From an uncultured cyanobacterium (GTDB lineage: Bacteria; Cyanobacteriota; Cyanobacteriia; Cyanobacteriales; Cyanobacteriaceae): a stretch of DNA of 64,000 nt. The stretch covers positions 192,001 through 256,000 of the forward strand of contig CAVQBA010000006.1 of NCBI GenBank assembly GCA_963710605.1, read 5' to 3'. Numbering within the stretch: the stretch's first letter is position 1; each line of letters begins with the position of its first letter. The notes under the pieces were generated by a model. That model was not told where the DNA came from, made no database searches, and saw only the letters and a program-made list of their open reading frames with translations. The position numbers and the translations under genes are program-made. Shown here one piece after another: positions 3,782-60,284 of this stretch.

Positions 3782-4734
3782 TTATCTTTAATATCTCTAC
3801 TTTTTAGTTTAATTAACAATGATTAGAAGTTGGGAATAATAACAATTCAAATAAAACTTGCAACAGTTTTTGTTAGTAAGTCTTTCAAAAATAGGAGCGA
3901 GGCATCCGCACAGCCTCCCCCACAATTAAAGCGAAGAAGCATCCTTTATTGTCCCCCAGAATTGGGGGATTTAGGGGGCAGGGGATAGAGGGGGATCGGA
4001 ATTTAAGGAGCTTAATCTATCTTTTTAGTTTTTTATCTTTTAAATATTTTCATCTATTAAAATCTTGCTGTTGTCTTAGTTTTAATTGTAATTATCAAAT
4101 CTGAGAAACAAATAAATAAAACTGAAGAATTAGATAAGACTTTGATCAAGGTGTTAGGTGTTAGGTGGAATGCTTATAACTTATAGCTTATCTTTTATCA
4201 AAGTATCGTAAAGATATTTCAATTGTTGTAAAGGAATAATAATTAGTAGTTAATAAATATGAAAAAATATGTCAACTTCAATACAGATGGCTTAATTCAA
4301 TTGGGGAAAAGATATATTAGAGCTATAGACCACTAATACTTAATGACCAAAAAATAGTCGTTGATTAGTCAATGTAAAATAGCTAGTTTATGTTAGTGCC
4401 AGTAGATCTTAAAGTTTTTTATCTATTTAATTCTCTACTTAAAAATAATGAGAAAAGAATAGTTAATTATCGATCGTAACTACAAAAAAATTAAGTATTA
4501 GTTATTTAAACTTTTGTAAAAAATATTTGACAATTGGCTAAATTTAATTGAATACAAAACAAAAAGATCGGTTTAAAACGATCGTAAATACAAAATATTA
4601 GCAAATTAAATCTTGTCAAACATTACTTAAGTAACTTGAAAGACTACTGCAAAATAAACTTTATTCAAAGCGATCTCTTTGTGTAAACTTTCAAAGTACG
4701 ACTATCACAACAATAATAGAAAAAACGGAACTAA

Positions 4735-7032
4735 ATGAACAACACCCCTCCTACCTCTTCTTCTGGACAGTGTCCCTTTCGTGGAACCCGCGTTGGAGGT
4801 GCACTTGGCTCTAAGCCACAAACAGATGATTGGTGGCCAAATCGACTTCAAGTAGAGCTACTTCATCAGAATTCACCTTTAGCTAATCCCCTCAAAGATT
4901 TTAATTATCAAGAAGCGTTTCAAAAAATTGACTTCCAACAGTTAAAAAATGATATTAAAGCTTTACTAAAAGATTCAAAAGATTGGTGGCCAGCAGATTA
5001 CGGTAACTATGGACCTCAAATGATTCGTATGGCATGGCACTCAGCGGGAACATACCGTATCGCCGATGGTCGTGGTGGAGCCGCTCAGGGTATGCAACGC
5101 TTTGCCCCAATTAATTCTTGGTGGGATAACGGTAATACAGATAAATCAAGACGGTTACTTTGGCCCATCAAACAAAAATATGGAGCGTCACTAAGTTGGG
5201 CAGATTTAATGATTTTAGTCGGTAACTGCTCTCTTGAAATTATGGGTTTAAAACCCTTTGGTTACGGCGGTGGTCGTATTGATGCTTGGGAAGCAGATAA
5301 AGCCACTTATTGGGGTCCTGAATTCTGGAACGGTGAACCTTTTGGAGGAAATGAAAAAGCTAAACCCCTTGAAGGACATCCAGATCAAATGGTTACTCGT
5401 GATATTCGTTGGGTTGGCGAACCAAAAGACGAGTACTATGACCTCGAAAATCCTTTAGGAGCTTCCCATCAAGCGTTGATTTACGTCGATCCTGAAGGTC
5501 CTGGTGGAAATGGCGATCCGATCGCATCTGCCCGTGACATCCGTGAAACTTTCGCTCGTATGGCAATGAACGACGAAGAAACTGTAGCCTTGATTGCAGG
5601 TGGTCATGCTTTTGGTAAAAGTCATGGTATGGTCGAGCCAGATAAAATCGGTCCTGCCCCAGAAGGTGCCCCAATTCAAGCAATGGGAATGGGATGGCAA
5701 AACCCTGAAGGTACTGGCTTTGCTGAATATACGATGACCAATGGTATTGAAGGCTCTTGGACACCAAACCCAACTCAGTGGGATAATAGCTACTTAGAAA
5801 ATTTATTTAAGTACGAGTGGGAAAAAACAAAAAGTCCCGCAGGTTCGGTACAATGGCATCCAAAAGATTCAGACGCACCTAAAACACCAGACGCACACAG
5901 AGAAGGTGTTGAGCATGCGTTAATGATGATGACTTCGGATATTGCCTTAAAAGAAGATTCTGCTTATAATGAAGTTTGTCAACGTTTCCTCAATGACTTT
6001 GAGTATTTTAGCGAAGCATTTTCTCTGGCTTGGTATAAGCTAACCCACAGAGATATGGGACCAAAAGTACGTTATCTAGGTCCAGAAGTTCCTGAAGAAG
6101 AGCTATCTTGGCAAGATCCAATTCCAGCACTCGATCATGATGTTGTTGATGATGCGGATATTAGTTCTTTAAAAGACAAACTTTTAGCAAGTGAGCTTTC
6201 TGTCTCGGCATTAGTGTCGGCGGCTTGGGCATCGGCATCAAACTATCGTAATACTGACAAACGTGGTGGTGCAAATGGTGCGCGTGTTGGCTTAAATCCT
6301 CAAAAAGAATGGGAAGTAAACCGTCCGCAAGAACTAGCTCAAGTTTTATCGACTCTCGAACAAATTCAAACTGACTTTAATAATAGTCAGTCAGGTAACA
6401 AAAAAGTATCGATCGCCGATCTTATTGTTCTCGGTGGCTGTGCTGGTATCGAAAAAGCGGCTAAATCTGCTGGAGTAGATGTGACTGTTCCCTTTACCCC
6501 TGGTAGAATGGATACTACTCAAGAATTAACAGATATTGAAACCTTCCAATGGCTCAAACCTGTCTCCGATGGTTTCAGAAATTACCATAATGAGGCGATC
6601 GGTTATAAAGTAAAAGCCGAGCGTATCTTCCTCGATCGAGCCCAATTACTTACTTTAACTGCACCTGAATGGACAGCTCTTGTTGGTGGACTTCGAGCTT
6701 TAGATCAAAACTGGGATCATTCTAAGCATGGTATCTTCACCGATCGTCCAGGTGTTTTAACTAATGACTTTTTCCGTGTCTTGACTAGTATGGATTATGA
6801 GTGGAAACCGATCGATAATCGTGAAATGATTTTTAATATTTGCGATCGTCAAACAGGTGAAACCAAATTTACTGCTACACGTTGCGATCTCATCTTTGGC
6901 TCTAATGCCGAACTACGTCAGGTAGCTGAAGTTTATGGTGCTAATGACGGTCAAGAGCTGATGGTTAAAGACTTTGTTGCCGCTTGGAATAAAGTGATGA
7001 TGCTCGATCGTTTTGATGTTCGCACTGTGTAA
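4735..7032 (+). CDS. katG: Catalase-peroxidase
   Basis: [11 protein letters not shown] distal heme motif, [10 protein letters not shown] proximal His, duplicated C-terminal domain ending KVMMLDRFD. Confidence 0.96.
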
Positions 7033-50313: not shown

Positions 50314-50587
50314 TATATTTATTTAATTATCGTCGTCACTAATTTTAACTTAGCTTAGATTACGATCGTATTAATAAAAAATAATTTGTCATATTTTCGT
50401 GGAGATGAAAATTAATAGTTTTACTTGTAACTAATCTTAAATATCTTTTATTGTTGGTAAATATTGATATTAATAATTTTTTTAGATTCATCGACTACAA
50501 AATATTCGGGTGCAAACCTTGCACCCCTACCTACAATTAATTGGAAATCAATATTACTTAATCGTTTTTTTCCCCATTCCCACCCTC

Positions 50588-50765
50588 ACTAAATTAGTAA
50601 ATCTATACATGGTAGTTACAGTTACAATACCCGATACTCATGTAACAATACTGAGTATTAAAGTGTAATTTAGGGAATCGAACCCATTTGGCTATGACTC
50701 TTCAGCCGTACCTAGCTAACTAATTACCCGTTAGCGAGGTTTGTATTCGCCTTTACTAATTTAGT
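50588..50765 (-). ncRNA. Candidate structured RNA downstream of DIP1984-family gene
   Basis: Perfect 14-bp closing stem ACTAAATTAGTAAA/TTTACTAATTTAGT enclosing four hairpins, including GGG-TTCGATT-CCC (T-loop). Confidence 0.75.
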
Positions 50766-50780
50766 TACCAACAAAGCAAA

Positions 50781-51239
50781 TTATTCCATTAATTCAGTTG
50801 ACCAATTCAATTGTTGTATTTTGGCATCTAATTCTCGATATTGTTTTGATAGAGCATCCGCTTGTTTTTGAATTTCTGATACTTTAACTGTACTTTTAAA
50901 TTTTACCTCGGATTTGCTATAACGATCTTGAGTAATTGTGGCTGTTTGTGCTAAATTTTTATATGCAGAGTACTTGAGCAACATAACATCTCTAGTTGCA
51001 AGTTTGTCCGCAATTGTTTTATCATCACTAACAACTGTATTGGAATTAGTTCTATTAATTTTTTGGATGATACTTTCTAACTGCCCGGATGTACTTTCTA
51101 AATCCTCTATCAATTCTTGAGGAGATTCTGAAGGAGAGTCTCCTTCTTGTACTTTGGCATTTTGCGTTAGTCTATTTTTTAAGTCGCTCAGTTTTTTTTG
51201 ATAATTAGCTCTTAATAAAAGTGCTTCAGCTAGTTTCAT
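50781..51239 (-). CDS. DIP1984-family coiled-coil protein
   Basis: MKLAEALLLRA...NAKVQEGDSPSESP...INRTN...RYSKSEVK...LDAKIQQLNWSTEL. Confidence 0.88.
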   Translation of the reverse strand: MKLAEALLLRANYQKKLSDLKNRLTQNAKVQEGDSPSESPQELIEDLESTSGQLESIIQKINRTNSNTVVSDDKTIADKLATRDVMLLKYSAYKNLAQTATITQDRYSKSEVKFKSTVKVSEIQKQADALSKQYRELDAKIQQLNWSTELME

Positions 51240-51604
51240 GTTAATGTTTTTCTTTTTTTACGAAACATATATATCTTTAATTATGTAACTATTAAAATTT
51301 AGACAAATATTTTAGTTTCATCGGTTTTTATTATTAATCATTATAATCATGTTATAACTTTTTCTAGTTACGATCGTAATTGACTATGTAACAATAATTA
51401 TTACCATAATCGATCGTGAATTAACTTTTTCAACCAGTGTTACAAACAATCTTAATCGTGATAACTAGTACATATTAGCAATAAAAATTATTGTAAGTGA
51501 TAGTGGTGTAGTCAATAAACCTTGAATATGATTATTTTGAATTAGTAAGACCAATCGTCAAAGTATTCATAGTATATAATTACTAAAAATACTTATAAGC
51601 AAAA

Positions 51605-53308
51605 ATGTCAGAAATCACTAATGCAGTCAAAAGAATTGCTAACATTGCTAGAAACAAAAATTGGAGTAATCTACCAGCAATATCTCTAATTTATTCTGGG
51701 GAATATCAAGACATCCCTTCAGGAAAAATCAAGCCAGAACAACTAACACAGGAACAACTAAAATATATAGATGATGTTTTTGGTGATTTTCAGCCATATT
51801 TAACCAAAGAAAAAATAGAAAACAAAGTCAAGACATATCCCTTTAAACTTCCTCAAGAATTTTATGAATTGTATCAACTAGGTAATGGTTGTCTTCCTTT
51901 TGATGTTATAGATGAATCACAAAACGATCGCAAAAAGTCGAGCTCAATTTATGACTACTTTTATTTTCCTAATCCTGATGATAAATTATTAGATTTACAT
52001 TCAATTATGAATTTTTATTCTCGTACCAAATATGCAGTTTGAATACTTAGAAAATAAATATTAGTAGCATTGGATGGAATCCAATATTATTCCTCTAAAA
52101 AGATTTATTGTCCTCATTGTAATTGTCGCAATCATAGAAATGGTGAAACAACTTATTATCATCAAGTAATTACTCCAGTTATCGTCTCACCAAACAAAAA
52201 ACAAGTAATTAACTTAGAGCCTGAATTTATTAGAAAACAGGATGGTAAAACGAAGCAAGATTGTGAAAACGTAGCGGTAAAAAGGTGGTTATTACGAAAT
52301 TCAAATGACCAAGAAAAAAATCAAATAACCTTATTGGGAGATGATCTTTATTCTCGTCAGCCAATATGTGAATTAGCGATAAAACAAGGATATAATTTTA
52401 TATTTGTGGCTTTACCATCATCTCATAAAAGTTTATATGAATGGCTTGATTTTTTAGAAAAAAATGAAGAAATAAAGAAAGGAGAAATCAAAAAATATGA
52501 AAAAGGAAGACCGATAATTTATCGTTATAAGTATGTAAATAATGTACCAATGAGAGAAAAAAAGCCAAGCTTAATGGTCAATTGGTATGAGGTCGAGATA
52601 ATTGATAGAATTAAGAATAAAGTAATTTATTATAATAGCTTTATCACTAATCATAAATTAAAAGAAGACAATATATTAGTAATAATAAAAGGGGGAAGAA
52701 CAAGATGGAAAGTAGAAAATGAAGGTAATAATATCTTGAAAAATCAAGGATATAATTTTGAACATAATTTTGGTCATGGGCAAGAGAATTTGTCCGAAAT
52801 ATTGTTATCATTAAATCTACTAGGATTTCTCTTTCACAATGTTTTAGAATTAGTGAATGTTAACTATCAAAAAATTAGAGACAAATTAGTGAGGAGAAAA
52901 ACATTTTTTAATGATATAAGAGCGTTATTGAAATATATATGGTTTGAAAGTTGGCAGGATTTATTCATATTTGTACTAACGGAAGGAGAAGAAAGAAAGT
53001 TAATCAACACAAGTTAAAAAGAGAAAAAATAAACAGTAAATTCTCCTTTACTACCTATTTTTATGTATTTAGATGCTGGAGAGTATTATCTATGTTTGGA
53101 AGGAAGTAATCAACAAGAAGAAACTTCTTCGTTATCGTTAACAATTCATGGAGGAGATTTGAGTTTTGACGTAATAGAAGAAATGTGGCCCAGTCTTACT
53201 AATATGATATTAGCCTATGCTCAATTACAAGAAACAAAAGATTTGAAAAAAGATATTTATGAAGAGTATGGTAGCTGTTGTGAGTATGCAGATGATTTTT
53301 TTACATAA
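51605..53308 (+). pseudogene. SMI1/KNR4-like gene interrupted by a transposase fragment
   Basis: 5' half has PFKLPQEFYELYQLGNG; removing 52039-53037 restores in-frame KYAVNSPLLPIFMYLDAGEYY...WPSLTNMILAYA. Confidence 0.75.
52039..53037 (+). mobile_element. 5'-truncated DDE transposase fragment (ISNCY/IS4-like), flanked by CAGT direct repeats
   Basis: ALDG...KQDCE...LLGDDLY...GRTRWKVENEGNNILKNQGYNFEHNFGHG; N-terminus and terminal inverted repeats not seen. Confidence 0.85.
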
Positions 53309-55616: not shown

Positions 55617-57666
55617 AATTGTTTTTCCCGATAAGTATTACCGCGATTGTAATAAGCATCAGCATCATTAGGATCGAGTTCAATTGCTTTACTGTAATCG
55701 GCGATCGCTTGTGAATATTTTTTTAAGCTCCGATAAGTATTACCACGATTGTAATAAGCCCAAGTATAATTGGGATCGAGTTCAATTGCTTTAGTGTAAT
55801 CGGCGATCGCTTGTGAATATTTTCTAAGCTCCGATAAGTATTACCACGATTGTAATAAACATCGGCATGATTAGGATCGAGTTCAATCGATTTACTATAA
55901 TCGGCGATAGCCTGTGAATATTTTTTTAAGTCATCATAAGCAACACCACGACTGTTGTAGGCATCAGTATAATTAGGAGCGAGTTCAATCGCTTTACTGT
56001 AGTCGGCGATCGCTTGTGGATATTTTTTGAGGTTTTTGTAAGTAATACCACGATTACGGTAAGCATCGGCATGATTAGGAGCGAGTTTAATTGCTTTACT
56101 ATAATCAGCCATAGCTTGTGAATACTTTTTGAGGTTATTGTAAGTTACACCACGATTATTGTAAGCATTAGCATAATTGGGATCGATTTCAATCGCTTTA
56201 TTATAATCAGCGATAGCTTGTGAATGTTTTTTTAAGTTATCATAAGTAATACCACGACTGTTGTAAGCATTAGCATAATTGGGATCGAGTTTAATTGCTT
56301 TATTATAATCAGCGATAGCTTGTGAATGTTTTTTTAAGTCATCATAAGTAATACCACGATTATTGTAAGCTTTAGTATAATTGGGATCGAGTTCAATCGC
56401 TTTATTATAATCAGCGATCGCCCGTGAATATTGTTTTAAGTCATCATAAGTAATACCACGACTGTTGTAAGCATTAGCATAATTGGGATCGAGTTCAATC
56501 GCTTTATTGTAGTCAGCCATCGCTTGTGGATATTTTTTTAAGTCTCGATAAGTATTACCACGATTATGGTAAGCATAAGTATGATTAGAATCGAGTTCAA
56601 TCGCTTTATTATAGTCCGCAAGCGCTTGTGTATATTTTTTAAGCTCATCGTAAGCAATACCACGATTGTTGTAAGCTTCAGTAAAATTGGGATCGAGTTC
56701 AATCGCTTTACTATAGTCAGCGATCGCTTCTGTATATTTTTCTAAGTCAGAGTAAGCATTACCACGATTTTTGTAAGGGTTAGCATCGTTAGGATTAAGC
56801 TCAATTGCCTTAAAATATTTTCTTAGTTTTCTGTGAGCATCAGTATTATTAGTATTGGTTACAATATTTTCTTCACTTTCTTCTGGTTGATTATTAATTT
56901 CAATAGGTTTAACAACAGGCGAATTATTAGGTTGTAGTGTATTTGTGGCTATCTCGACTGGATTTTGTTCTGTCCAACTAAGATAAAGATAAATAGGAAT
57001 ACTTAAAAAATCTCTCACCGCAACGGTCGGATCTTTGATAACATGACCATTGATACCGACTAATTGTCCTTTGTTATTTAATACCGCCCCGCCACTCATC
57101 CCCGGAATTGTTTCTGCTTTATGGGAAATCTGATAACCTTCTCTGGCTGTATTACTAATACCATTAATATCGCCCTGGTTAAATAGATAACGTCGTTGAG
57201 CATCTAACTTACTGTTACCACCAAACCCTGACGCATAAATAGTTTGCCCTTGACTTAATTTAGCTGAATTTCCTAATTTAGCTACTTGATATTTTTTATT
57301 AGTTTGAAATTTTATTTGAGCTAAATCGAGGTTATTGTCTTCTGTATAGCGACTAATTTGATTGGAGGAAATAGTATAAGTATCTTCTTGATTATCTTGA
57401 TAAATAGTGATTTTATAATCACCATCGTTTTCTACTACATGATGATTTGTCACGATAGTATAAATATTACCATCACGATCGATTAACACTCCCGAACCTT
57501 GACCTGCACCTTCAATCTTGACTGTAATGTTTTGGGCGACTTGAGCGATTTTAGTTGAATGCAGAGGGAAGCCTAATCGTGCGTATAAATGAGGTTGCCC
57601 AAATATTATTAAGATTATAGTCGCTACCATCAAAATAGCAGTAATAACGATCGATCGTTTTTTCAT
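55598..57666 (-). CDS. Trypsin-like serine protease with long TPR array; frameshift at ~55822 near the C-terminus
   Basis: GSGV, TNHHVV, DLA, PGMSGG catalytic triad; ~10 34-aa AYNNRG...AIADYxKAIELDP repeats; one A missing in GAAAATAT, after which about two more TPRs read to TAA at 55598. Confidence 0.85.
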
Positions 57667-60213: not shown

Positions 60214-60284
60214 AGGCGACACCCAGATTCGAACTGGGGATAGAGGTTTTGCAGACCTCGGCCTTACCACTTGGCGATGTCGCC
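60214..60284 (-). tRNA. trnC: tRNA-Cys(GCA)
   Basis: GGCGACA acceptor, GAGGT-CTGCAAA-ACCTC anticodon arm, CCCAG-TTCGAAT-CTGGG T-arm, U discriminator. Confidence 0.97.

Follow-up and report, generated by a model that had tools for sequence, protein, structure and literature searches.

Within the window (the whole 64,000-nt stretch of cyanobacterial DNA analysed here), a gene of the DIP1984/DUF6847 family lies on the minus strand, with its stop codon at 50781-50783, and a structured RNA of ~204 nt lies directly 3' of it (50571-50774, minus strand). The parts of this pair, in gene sense, are the following:

50781..51239, minus strand: DIP1984/DUF6847 family gene, 152 aa (ORF list and profile matches)
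50571..50774, minus strand: DIP1984-associated RNA, matched by covariance model R1 over its full length (model positions 1-201; 156 bits, E 4.7e-42)
50766..50769, minus strand: invariant GGUA, 5' side of the loop below the closing stem (G, G, T and A invariant in 82/82 aligned sequences)
50752..50765, minus strand: P1 closing stem, 5' strand ACUAAAUUAGUAAA (partner 50588-50601)
50746..50751, minus strand: GGCGAA motif in the internal loop between P1 and P2 (family consensus GNCGA[A/G])
50742..50746, minus strand: P2, 5' strand AUACA (pairs with UGUAU at 50605-50609)
50715..50735, minus strand: P3 hairpin GCUAAC-GGGUAAUUA-GUUAGC (94.6% paired; two-sided changes in all 5 pairs)
50690..50707, minus strand: P4 hairpin GGCUG-AAGAGUCA-UAGCC (86.9% paired)
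50697-50700, minus strand: 5' strand of the pseudoknot, GAGU in the P4 loop
50673..50685, minus strand: T-arm mimic GGG-UUCGAUU-CCC (97.4% paired)
50653..50656, minus strand: 3' strand of the pseudoknot, ACUC, partner of the P4 loop
50611..50651, minus strand: conserved 3' domain with no supported helix and an invariant A or AC about every 7 nt
50605..50609, minus strand: P2, 3' strand UGUAU, then A-G-A facing the GGCGA loop
50588..50601, minus strand: P1 closing stem, 3' strand UUUACUAAUUUAGU
50572..50587, minus strand: invariant G-rich tail GAGGGUGGGAAUGGGG (family form GAGGG-N-GGG-NNN-GGGG)
50498..50526, minus strand: terminator-like hairpin GGGUGCAAGGUUUGCACCC and U-rich tail, 45 nt beyond the RNA (hairpin itself 50508-50526)

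All the sequence features that the first-pass annotation had listed are present on the minus strand, namely a perfect 14-bp closing stem starting 15 nt past the stop codon (ACTAAATTAGTAAA at 50752-50765 with TTTACTAATTTAGT at 50588-50601), GGCGAA (50746-50751), the hairpin GCTAAC/GTTAGC with the loop GGGTAATTA (50715-50735), the hairpin GGCTG/TAGCC (50690-50707), the T-loop hairpin GGGTTCGATTCCC (50673-50685), AATTAC (50665-50670), ATACTCA/TGAGTAT and CATGTATAG. Its left boundary at 50588 was too short: the model match reaches 50571, and the invariant tail GAGGGTGGGAATGGGG occupies 50572-50587. A consensus scan of the region found three terminator-like sites (0.5 expected), and promoter matches were at chance level (10 found, 8.9 expected), as were those to the TrcR-type promoter repeat described in PMC8421152 (152 matches in the window, 141 expected). 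The sole tRNA gene of the window is a tRNA-Cys at 60214-60284.

The protein belongs to the DIP1984 family, as had been proposed from the sequence, matching NF038048 at 7.2e-56 (188.5 bits, cut-off 70) and PF20935 at 3e-54 (183.2 bits, cut-off 27). It is homologous to PDB 3kdq (E 1.2e-38), which was also the sole match with E < 1e-3 in a fold search with the DIP1984 model (pLDDT 82), the other matches being generic helical bundles; the protein is itself a helical bundle for which this search returned no nuclease-like fold. DIP1984 proteins carry no known RNA-binding domain, and their pI is mildly acidic in nine relatives (5.0-5.9) and 7.8 in the window protein. The homodimer prediction scores 0.77 (best control 0.00) and passes the mark; among proteins solved as pairs 20 of 30 do so, and among those solved as single chains one of 23. 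Because the solved homologue 3kdq has four chains, this pass may reflect memory of the known structure. Contacts agreed to at least 98% between runs, and the pLDDT of the partner was at least 90. Members of the family are frequently mislabelled 'septicolysin'.

Folded alone, the window copy of the RNA reaches a minimum free energy of -51.4 kcal/mol (z = -2.44), a modest excess that 3 of 200 shuffles equal, and the case for more-than-chance structure therefore rests on comparison with relatives. The consensus structure of 82 aligned homologues is 88.5% paired, compared with 76.1% in shuffles, and its covariation score of 0.415 (0.196 in shuffles) was matched by none of 500 shuffles; controls with the structure slid along the alignment paired at only 28-40%. 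Pairing is better on the sense strand, with G-U pairs at 6.4% in sense and 2.7% in antisense. Covariation supports the closing stem, the GNCGA internal loop, three hairpins (one of them the T-arm mimic) and a pseudoknot. Two-sided changes occur at all pairs of P1 across the 82 sequences. Within the GNCGA motif both G's flanking the C are invariant, and the C forms a standard pair with a G of the 3' strand throughout (C-G in 78, U-A in 3, U-G in 1 of 82); scored as one helix, inner P1, this C-G pair and P2 (columns 25-38/233-243) are 97.7% paired with compensatory changes. The pseudoknot of the P4 loop is 95% paired with both sides changing, as GGGC/GCCC in most sequences and GAGU/ACUC in the window.

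Comparison with relatives also corrected parts of the structure first drawn from the window alone. The pseudoknot suggested there, between a GTAATT loop and AATTAC, is not conserved (35.4% paired, 32.2% in shuffles), and the hairpin ATACTCA/TGAGTAT, which can form in the window, does not hold in the family, where ACUC pairs with GAGU of the P4 loop. The motifs GCGA(A/G) and GGTTCGA, in turn, were correctly anticipated to be conserved. An alternative UAA/UUA pairing is 61% paired. A CC/GG pairing beside P3 is 89% paired, with nearly invariant bases that give no covariation test for that reason. The AGUNAC/GUNACU complementarity shows no covariation and is mismatched at its centre in 67 of the 82 sequences. 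The T-arm mimic is present in 68 of the 82 aligned sequences and missing in 14, several cyanobacterial members among them.

Conservation extends to unpaired parts of the RNA. In the 3' domain, the invariant or near-invariant positions of the window RNA are A126, A132/C133, A140, A147, A153, A159/C160 and A162-C164, and the Deinococcota version carries CAC with a 7-nt period. Twelve G columns of the G-rich tail are invariant, and a further G and an A are each kept in 81 of 82 sequences; the Deinococcota and Acinetobacter versions have neither this tail nor GGUA. A G-quadruplex built from these G's would be conjectural, since the G4 option of ViennaRNA left the minimum-energy folds unchanged in five members.

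The long terminal inverted repeats of the window element, and the small modular plasmids that host the gene in Acinetobacter, could also suggest an element acting as DNA, such as a recombination site, a MITE or an attC-like cassette site. We consider this barely credible. The element is single-copy, its orientation relative to the gene is fixed, and its internal sequence is kept across phyla, with compensatory changes in the helices and more G-U pairs on the sense strand; neither a dispersed-repeat distribution nor strand-symmetric conservation was seen.

The RNA is coupled to the gene almost without exception. Of 90 DIP1984 loci, which represent at least six bacterial phyla, 87 have a single R1 match each, immediately 3' of the gene and in its orientation; these matches come largely from sequences used to build the model. 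The three other loci are one with no downstream DNA (L092), an internally deleted remnant (L066) and one whose contig stops 220 nt past the gene (L017); the genome of L017 carries the RNA on a different contig, at its beginning. A survey of 61 related genomes gave strong RNA matches in the ten with the gene and in no others; a further partial match of 25.6 bits lies in a genome that is 61% complete. A dispersed repeat, one of the outcomes raised against the first interpretation, is not what was found: BLAST and the covariance model each detect one copy in the window's own genome, and the RNA is likewise single-copy in five of five genomes from other phyla.

Whether homologous genes carry a conserved downstream structure had been set beforehand as a refutation test, and they do so both in the 87 loci and in plasmids, viral contigs and Deinococcota, which lie outside model building. 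A Picosynechococcus plasmid matches at 106.7 bits and an Enterococcus plasmid at 41.4 bits (E 2.3e-11); A. baumannii pAB0057 matches weakly at 16.8 bits, with the P1/GGCGAG/P2 core still readable. Weaker or partial copies were found in seven of eight viral contigs and in 12 of 12 Deinococcota loci; under strict filters the RNA was recovered in 7 of 101 Deinococcota genomes, each time just 3' of the gene, and with the filters off in 11 of 11 further loci. Carriers thus include at least Cyanobacteriota, Chloroflexota, Acidobacteriota, Deinococcota, Armatimonadota and Bacillota, as well as, weakly, Pseudomonadota plasmids, and viral contigs. The gene itself occurs in 371 PLSDB plasmid records, 342 of them from Acinetobacter, where it sits on small modular plasmids and where the pair was seen on one of 8.7 kb; it is also present on viral contigs, and five matches to the protein come from cultured-phage records. 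Distribution is patchy at close range, none of 19 other genomes of the window's own family carrying the pair.

In most loci the RNA starts 0-15 nt past the stop codon and it is always in cis, which would suit a 3' UTR element that works in cis alone. Such an element would stabilise or process the DIP1984 mRNA, or link translation termination to folding, and would have no function independent of that mRNA. In line with such a role, the flanks often form an outer stem over the stop codon (mean length of the best flank helix 7.5 bp, shuffles 5.2 bp; 12 bp in L024 and 15 bp in L028), and the DIP1984 protein is acidic and lacks an RNA-binding domain. However, ~200 nt with a pseudoknot, invariant loops and a T-arm mimic kept across phyla far exceed the needs of known 3' stabilisers. 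Additionally, stop codon and RNA are separated by tens to ~250 nt in L012, L018, L039 and L045, the viral contigs L110 and L111/L112 carry two RNA copies behind a single gene, one of them past an intervening endonuclease gene, and in tRNA arrays a tRNA gene directly follows the RNA, so that tRNA processing would release it. We therefore regard a solely cis-acting role as unlikely. The double RNA copies behind single genes and the gene-RNA pairs flanked by tRNA genes suggest instead that the RNA acts in trans rather than only in cis.

No named family accounts for this RNA, in agreement with the first-pass annotation: Rfam 15 returned nothing on the window element at E <= 10, nor on the RNA in 12 loci at E <= 0.1 or in 12 Deinococcota loci at E <= 0.05, and neither ARAGORN nor Rfam called a tRNA or tmRNA on the element. 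In the literature on DIP1984/DUF6847, YrlA/Ro60, RNA repair and tRNA arrays (for the last, the main articles), no description of a DIP1984-linked RNA was found. The RNA is thus a member of a widespread structured non-coding RNA family for which we found no published description. Together with the 87 of 90 loci and the single-copy state, this supports the core of the initial proposal, a two-component unit of protein and non-coding RNA.

The closest likeness is to the YrlA Y RNAs (RF02553), whose GNCGAA motif is described by Chen et al. 2014 (PMC4201824). Both RNAs have a basal stem made of the 5' and 3' ends, with GNCGA(A/G) on its 5' strand, and a mimic of the tRNA T arm; both occur near Ro60/RtcB RNA-repair genes and in phages that carry tRNA clusters, and the DIP1984-linked RNA is probably a protein-bound scaffold too. 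Where YrlA has GNCGAA(N0-1)G, the window has GGCGAAUA and most relatives have G-N-C-G-A-G-C/U-A, the same in form and position with the trailing G lost. The differences are substantial. The DIP1984-linked RNA is ~200 nt long, whereas RF02553 spans 114 model positions. In the former, the P4 loop forms a pseudoknot with GCCC, a G-rich loop and tail are invariant, and the unpaired 3' domain follows a heptad pattern. No D-arm or acceptor-like stem layout was recognised in it; the hairpin preceding the T arm (itself present in 68 of 82 members) pairs its G-rich loop with the downstream GCCC instead. RF02553 (gathering score 69 bits) gave no match on the window element at E <= 10, and its matches in 12 related loci (32-66 bits) fall at separate sites, never on the DIP1984-linked RNA. 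Finally, the coupling partner is DIP1984, not Ro60.

These likenesses could mean that the RNA is a true Y RNA bound by Ro60/Rsr at the GNCGA stem, with DIP1984 merely a frequent neighbour or an RNA-tethered effector. GGCGAA/GNCGAG occupies the place that the motif has in YrlA, the 5' strand of the basal stem (PMC4201824), the T-arm mimic is shared, and YrlA-like matches occur in the same loci as the DIP1984-linked RNA. Ten of the 90 related loci have a Ro60 gene within ~4 kb in the same orientation: Ro60 proper (TROVE plus vWA_Ro60) in three and, in seven, a ~480-aa Ro60-like protein that aligns to Ro60 across 408 residues, including the vWA DxSGSM motif, and is encoded directly upstream of DIP1984 in six cyanobacterial loci. 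Nevertheless, neither a TROVE nor a Ro60-like gene was found in the window's own genome (85% complete); the Ro60-like protein was not found in three cyanobacterial carriers, each 99% complete, and 12 Deinococcota loci have no Ro60 or RtcB inside 1.5 kb. The pair on the 8.7-kb Acinetobacter plasmid also counts against a Ro60 partner, as do the near-absolute coupling to DIP1984, with no such coupling to Ro60, and a YrlA model that matches other sites in the same loci and never this RNA. A Y RNA in the strict sense accordingly has, in our judgement, a small chance of being correct.

Neighbouring genes point to tRNA biology and RNA repair. tRNA arrays or genes for HNH, RtcB, RtcA, RNA ligase or Ro60-like proteins lie beside the pair in 43 of 90 loci (HNH 19, RtcB 10, RtcA 4, RNA ligase 3, Ro60 3, Ro60-like 7; at least five tRNA genes in 24 loci, with a maximum of 27), counts that are not independent because many positive loci are from related Pyrinomonadaceae. 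tRNA genes flank the gene and RNA directly in L108, L054 and L036, and RtcB comes after the pair on the phage contig L109. Within the flanks covered, 47 of the 90 loci, the window's included, have no tRNA or RNA-repair neighbour. According to PMC8421152, tRNA arrays with HNH and RtcB form a translational-stress regulon; in Pyrinomonadaceae and viral contigs the pair lies inside such arrays or closes them, in the orientation of the tRNA genes, and HNH and RtcB are close by. The accessible main text of the tRNA-array papers names HNH, RtcB, DpsA and the hypothetical all4315, and mentions neither DIP1984 nor a non-coding RNA; the window's own pair sits outside any array, near a large unannotated ORF. 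On the Picosynechococcus plasmid, the pair lies among toxin-antitoxin genes.

A compact module of gene and RNA on plasmids (the 371 PLSDB records, 342 from Acinetobacter) and viral contigs invites comparison with type III toxin-antitoxin or abortive-infection systems; DIP1984 would then be a toxin held in check by the RNA as antitoxin, and the pair would stabilise plasmids and phages. In ToxIN, the antitoxin RNA consists of tandem repeats and lies 5' of the toxin gene, with a terminator between them. Like ToxIN, the pair joins a small protein gene to an adjacent structured RNA on plasmids and phages; the toxin-antitoxin genes around the Picosynechococcus pair, the unannotated ORF near the window pair and the absence of the pair from 19 other genomes of the same family fit this reading as well. 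Unlike ToxIN, the RNA lies downstream of the gene and has no tandem repeats (none occurs in 50450-51330, and the one array found, of a 9-nt unit, lies upstream of the gene at 51330-51350), and the helical-bundle protein has no endoribonuclease-like fold. Moreover, PADLOC gave no match for the DIP1984 gene or three neighbouring ORFs, and the pair is stably embedded in chromosomal tRNA operons. A type III-like system, one of three readings offered at the outset, is thus very improbable. A broader role in defence or conflict, the second, is plausible from the genomic context, with the lack of a PADLOC match standing against it; the third, a candidate RNP, has the best support of the three.

Conservation, covariation, strict genetic coupling and the genomic contexts are established for this pair, and the explanation that we consider rather probable is a new Y-RNA-like, tRNA-mimicking non-coding RNA that would assemble with DIP1984 into an RNP active when cells respond to damaged tRNA or RNA. 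The RNA would probably be cotranscribed with the DIP1984 gene, the window transcript ending at the hairpin 50508-50526, and would be released from the 3' end of the mRNA to assemble with oligomeric DIP1984 protein; the unpaired 3' domain, with its A or AC about every 7 nt, would be the likeliest platform for several protein subunits. The particle may serve as a Y RNA-type tRNA mimic when tRNA or RNA is damaged and translation is under stress; it could, for instance, decoy tRNA-recognising nucleases or repair enzymes such as RtcB, or offer them a scaffold. Such a role would explain the T-arm mimic, the YrlA-like GNCGA motif and the positions in tRNA arrays, beside RtcB, RtcA, RNA ligase and Ro60, and in phage tRNA clusters. 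tRNA mimicry cannot be the whole function, because 14 of 82 members lack the T arm. A bolder version, which is possible but which we hold only tentatively, is a widespread translation-protection RNP, i.e., a tRNA-mimicking particle of tRNA arrays, plasmids and phages, in which DIP1984 oligomers would coat the heptad strand and the G-tracts (GGUA and GAGGG-N-GGG-NNN-GGGG) would form a G-quadruplex-like core, and which would decoy or recruit tRNA-directed nucleases or repair enzymes in phage-host or toxin conflicts.

DIP1984/DUF6847 has been a family with a solved structure (PDB 3kdq) and a blank function, and the strictly coupled structured RNA, from a large and highly conserved family that has no Rfam match, is a first concrete testable lead to it; two unusual features of the RNA, its invariant G-tracts and its 7-nt pattern, are open to direct probing. 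Its position in tRNA arrays and beside RtcB, RtcA, RNA ligase and Ro60 bears on the purpose of these arrays and of Y-RNA-like tRNA mimics, and on how phages and their hosts contest tRNAs.

The hairpins and motifs that a first-pass annotation had described behind a DIP1984-family gene were all found on the minus strand, together with the perfect 14-bp stem that it placed 15 bases past the stop codon. No Rfam family matches the element, which that annotation could not match to a named RNA family either (0 matches on the element at E <= 10, Rfam 15, permissive mode), and ARAGORN found no tRNA or tmRNA there. The window copy folds on its own at -51.4 kcal/mol (z = -2.44; 3/200 shuffles equal), which is only modestly unusual, so that the case for the element rests on comparison with its relatives.

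The DIP1984 gene lies above the cut-off in 10/61 genomes of the window's relatives and in 0/19 other genomes of its taxonomic family; inspection of the 400 nt downstream of the ten genes revealed the same element in nine. A scan of species-representative genomes gave 510 loci with relatives, and the best 80 of these, which were retained, belong to Chloroflexota, Acidobacteriota (many Pyrinomonadaceae, Blastocatellia), Deinococcota, Armatimonadota and Cyanobacteria, with one Clostridia and one Methanoregula MAG. An alignment of 82 elements (A2) yielded a covariance model, R1, of 201 positions and 34 base pairs. R1 matches the window RNA at 50571-50774 (156 bits, E 4.7e-42) and 87/91 sources in all (window plus 90 loci; 87-200 bits). 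Each matching source has a single match, which invariably lies just 3' of the gene and in the gene's orientation; the conserved structure proposed to follow homologous genes thus exists. The four sources lacking a match are L019, which does not represent a DIP1984 locus; L092, whose sequence stops with the gene; L066, with an internally deleted remnant of the RNA; and L017, whose contig stops 220 nt past the gene and whose genome carries the RNA, by R1, at the beginning of another contig. Since most of these matches are training sequences of R1, independent tests were relied on. Over the 61 relatives, strong matches occur in exactly the 10 gene carriers, the remaining match being a 49-nt partial one (25.6 bits) in a genome 61% complete, and genomes of other phyla hold one copy each (5/5). 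In the window's own genome, which is 85% complete and comprises 3.93 Mb in 7 contigs, R1 also finds one copy, and BLAST of the 196-nt stretch recovered itself alone, the 24 other matches being 14-26 nt long with E of at least 0.36; the element is therefore not a dispersed repeat. In the relative genome G026, the gene lies near the end of contig C120 and the RNA at C68:192-412, the start of another contig, which suggests an unassembled insertion or repeat between them.

Features of the gene and its RNA, in window coordinates, are as follows.
50781-51239, minus strand: DIP1984-family open reading frame, 152 aa
P0, outer stem drawn from the flanks, often formed, overlapping the stop codon
50766-50769, minus strand: GGUA, invariant (82/82)
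50752-50765 with 50588-50601, minus strand: P1, closing stem
50746-50751, minus strand: GGCGA(A) internal loop, opposite A-G-A
50742-50746 with 50605-50609, minus strand: helix P2
50715-50735, minus strand: P3 hairpin
50690-50707, minus strand: P4 hairpin
50673-50685, minus strand: T-arm mimic
Between T-arm mimic and 3' domain, minus strand: strand ending in GCCCAG (window: ACUCAG)
50611-50651, minus strand: 3' domain of about 40 nt
50572-50587, minus strand: tail GAGGG-N-GGG-NNN-GGGG, 3' of P1
50508-50526: terminator-like hairpin after the RNA in the window

The structure is conserved, covarying and strand-specific. In A2 the consensus is 88.5% paired versus 76.1% in shuffles and 28-40% in slid controls, both sides change in 42/48 pairs, and the covariation score of 0.415 (0.196 in shuffles) was reached by 0/500. 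A pseudoknot between the P4 loop GGGC (window GAGU) and GCCC (window ACUC) is 95% paired and covaries, while the one first proposed, joining a GTAATT loop to AATTAC, stands at shuffle level (35.4% versus 32.2% paired) and was abandoned. The C of GGCGA(A) makes a standard pair with the 3'-strand G in 82/82 sequences (C-G in 78), the T arm is present in 68/82, and the tail keeps 12 G's in 82/82 and a thirteenth G and the A in 81/82. The 3' domain shows no supported helix in A2 and has an invariant A or AC at approximately every seventh base. For the best flank helix the mean length is 7.5 bp (5.2 bp in shuffles), with 12 bp in L024 and 15 bp in L028, P0 being weak in the window, and some relatives insert an extra hairpin between P3 and P4. 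G-U pairs make up 6.4% on the sense strand versus 2.7% antisense, and we consider an element acting at the DNA level extremely improbable.

In different phyla, as on plasmids and in viral contigs, the RNA is genetically coupled to DIP1984 almost absolutely. Of the 371 PLSDB plasmid records that encode a relative, 342 come from Acinetobacter, and R1 with filters off matches directly 3' of the gene in plasmids of Picosynechococcus (106.7 bits), Enterococcus lactis (41.4 bits, E 2.3e-11) and A. baumannii (pAB0057; 16.8 bits, E 1.9e-4). The Enterococcus copy retains AGCGAGCAC, GUUACAAGCGUAC, GACC-AC-GUGCUGG and an GGUGGGUG tail, followed by a terminator; the Acinetobacter copy comprises the common core without the G-rich tail, its closing stem having 10 bp and its sequence including GGCGAGUAC as well as ACUACC-AU-GUACUGA. 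Among 101 Deinococcota genomes sampled, 34 carry the gene above the cut-off; strict filters gave seven R1 matches, each just 3' of the gene, and with filters off 11/11 further loci gave a match (9-46 bits) that takes in P3 and P4 as well as the T arm and GCCCAGCA. In these loci (L117-L127) the RNA lies about 30-230 nt past the DIP1984 stop codon, GGUA and the G-rich tail are missing, and the 3' domain is C-rich, with CAC repeated six or seven times at a 7-nt period. CACCCCUCAC occurs there twice in 4/11 loci and at most once in each of the others; as the complement of GUGAGGGGUG, it is close to the complement of the main-type G-tail.

Eight viral contigs in IMG/VR encode a relative, and R1 matches 3' of the gene in seven (19-65 bits) and not in L113. 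L110 and the near-identical L111/L112 have two RNA copies after one DIP1984 gene, as given by R1:
L110:4993-5179 and 5794-5984
L111:4459-4664 and 4670-4871
Between the two copies of L110 lies an ORF of the Endonuclease VII family (5241-5789). A 3' UTR element acting purely in cis would also sit behind its gene, as the RNA does; alongside the doubled copies, we judge this reading improbable.

Neighbourhoods of tRNA and RNA-repair genes recur around the pair. In 90 loci with flanks of 1.5-3 kb, where neighbouring ORFs were clustered and representatives scanned with Pfam, at least five tRNA genes occur in 24 (maximum 27), with gene and RNA on the tRNA strand, inside the array or at its end. An HNH endonuclease is near the pair in 19 loci, RtcB in 10 and RtcA in 4; three loci have an RNA ligase (PF09414), and three have Ro60 proper (TROVE + vWA_Ro60). 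Such contexts, together with the Ro60-like protein described below, cover 43/90 loci, and the other 47, the window included, show none within these flanks. Viral pairs lie within tRNA clusters (L108, 9 tRNAs; L109, 7; L115, 9), with RtcB after the pair in L109. According to published work, long tRNA arrays with linked HNH/RtcB genes are part of a translational-stress response (PMC8421152, PMC10272220), and Ro60 with a tRNA-like partner forms an RNA-repair platform (PMC7824862).

Several further observations concern these loci and the window. Pyrinomonadaceae have long tRNA arrays in which genes for HNH and RtcB are embedded (L082, L054, L046, L031 and L036, whose 27 tRNA genes span about 3.8 kb), DIP1984 and the RNA standing at the 3' end, at times before one more tRNA-Gln. 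ARAGORN reports a suppressor-type tRNA with a CUA anticodon (L108:7017-7107) and another tRNA whose anticodon has 4 bases (L114:2805-2878), and a TnpB-like ORF (OrfB_IS605 + Cas12f1-like TNB; L109:2268-3410, minus strand) lies beside a phage tRNA cluster. An ORF family of 150-198 aa without a Pfam hit adjoins the pair at L042:3614-4210 and in L023, L029, L040, L057, L067, L094 and L096. In the window, a 315-aa ORF without a Pfam or PADLOC hit (52070-53017, plus strand) has a short ORF in its own orientation on either side (51605-52042 and 53063-53308); the arrangement may represent a gene, divergent from DIP1984, that an insertion has split. At 55631-56600 lies a tandem array of 9.5 copies with 84% matches; its period of 102 nt equals 34 codons, so a repeat protein may be encoded there.

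Ro60 itself bears on whether the element is a Y RNA proper, bound by Ro60. A protein of about 480 aa without a Pfam hit occurs in seven loci (L096:1488-2927, L009, L010, L014, L016, L097, L027), directly upstream of DIP1984 in six cyanobacterial ones. Its alignment with bona fide Ro60 spans 408 residues, among them the vWA DxSGSM motif (pairwise E 0.007); judged by this alignment, the protein is probably a divergent form of Ro60, one that would escape TROVE-based surveys of cyanobacteria. Of five further cyanobacterial carriers searched for it, two gave a match and three, each 99% complete, gave none, and no TROVE or Ro60-like gene was found in the window's own genome (85% complete). Sub-threshold matches to the bacterial Y RNA YrlA (32-66 bits) appeared in 5/12 loci scanned (for example, L096:802-917), elsewhere in the locus and never on the DIP1984-associated RNA. 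We regard a Y RNA proper as unlikely.

The 152-aa protein belongs to the DIP1984 family by its match to NCBIfam NF038048 (188.5 bits against a cut-off of 70; 7.2e-56), also matches Pfam PF20935 (DUF6847; 3e-54), and is homologous to 3kdq, a solved but uncharacterised protein (E 1.2e-38). AlphaFold predicts a four-helix bundle with two short strands (pLDDT 82.4), for which Foldseek gave no significant E-value except to 3kdq; the calculated pI is 7.8, and 5.0-5.9 in nine relatives. A homodimer was predicted with a score of 0.77 (best control 0.00), passing a mark reached by 20/30 proteins solved as pairs and 1/23 solved as single chains, with at least 98% of contacts in agreement between runs and pLDDT of at least 90; this pass may reflect memory of 3kdq, which was solved with four chains.

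Collectively, a functional structured RNA coupled to DIP1984 is close to certain. A type III-like toxin-antitoxin pair would likewise join a protein to an RNA; Tandem Repeats Finder detected no tandem repeats within this RNA, and we hold such a pair to be very unlikely. A ribonucleoprotein concerned with tRNA or RNA damage, taken as a whole, seems reasonably probable to us. The RNA would be made out of the 3'-terminal part of the DIP1984 transcript, ahead of the terminator-like hairpin in the window, and would bind DIP1984 oligomers, most plausibly along its heptad-patterned single strand. The literature searched held no account of an RNA tied to DIP1984/DUF6847. We class the element as an RNA family of its own, newly paired with a protein, and place the pair in a system of known kind, the Y-RNA-like tRNA mimics of RNA-repair loci; as such a mimic, the RNA would act in responses to tRNA or RNA damage.
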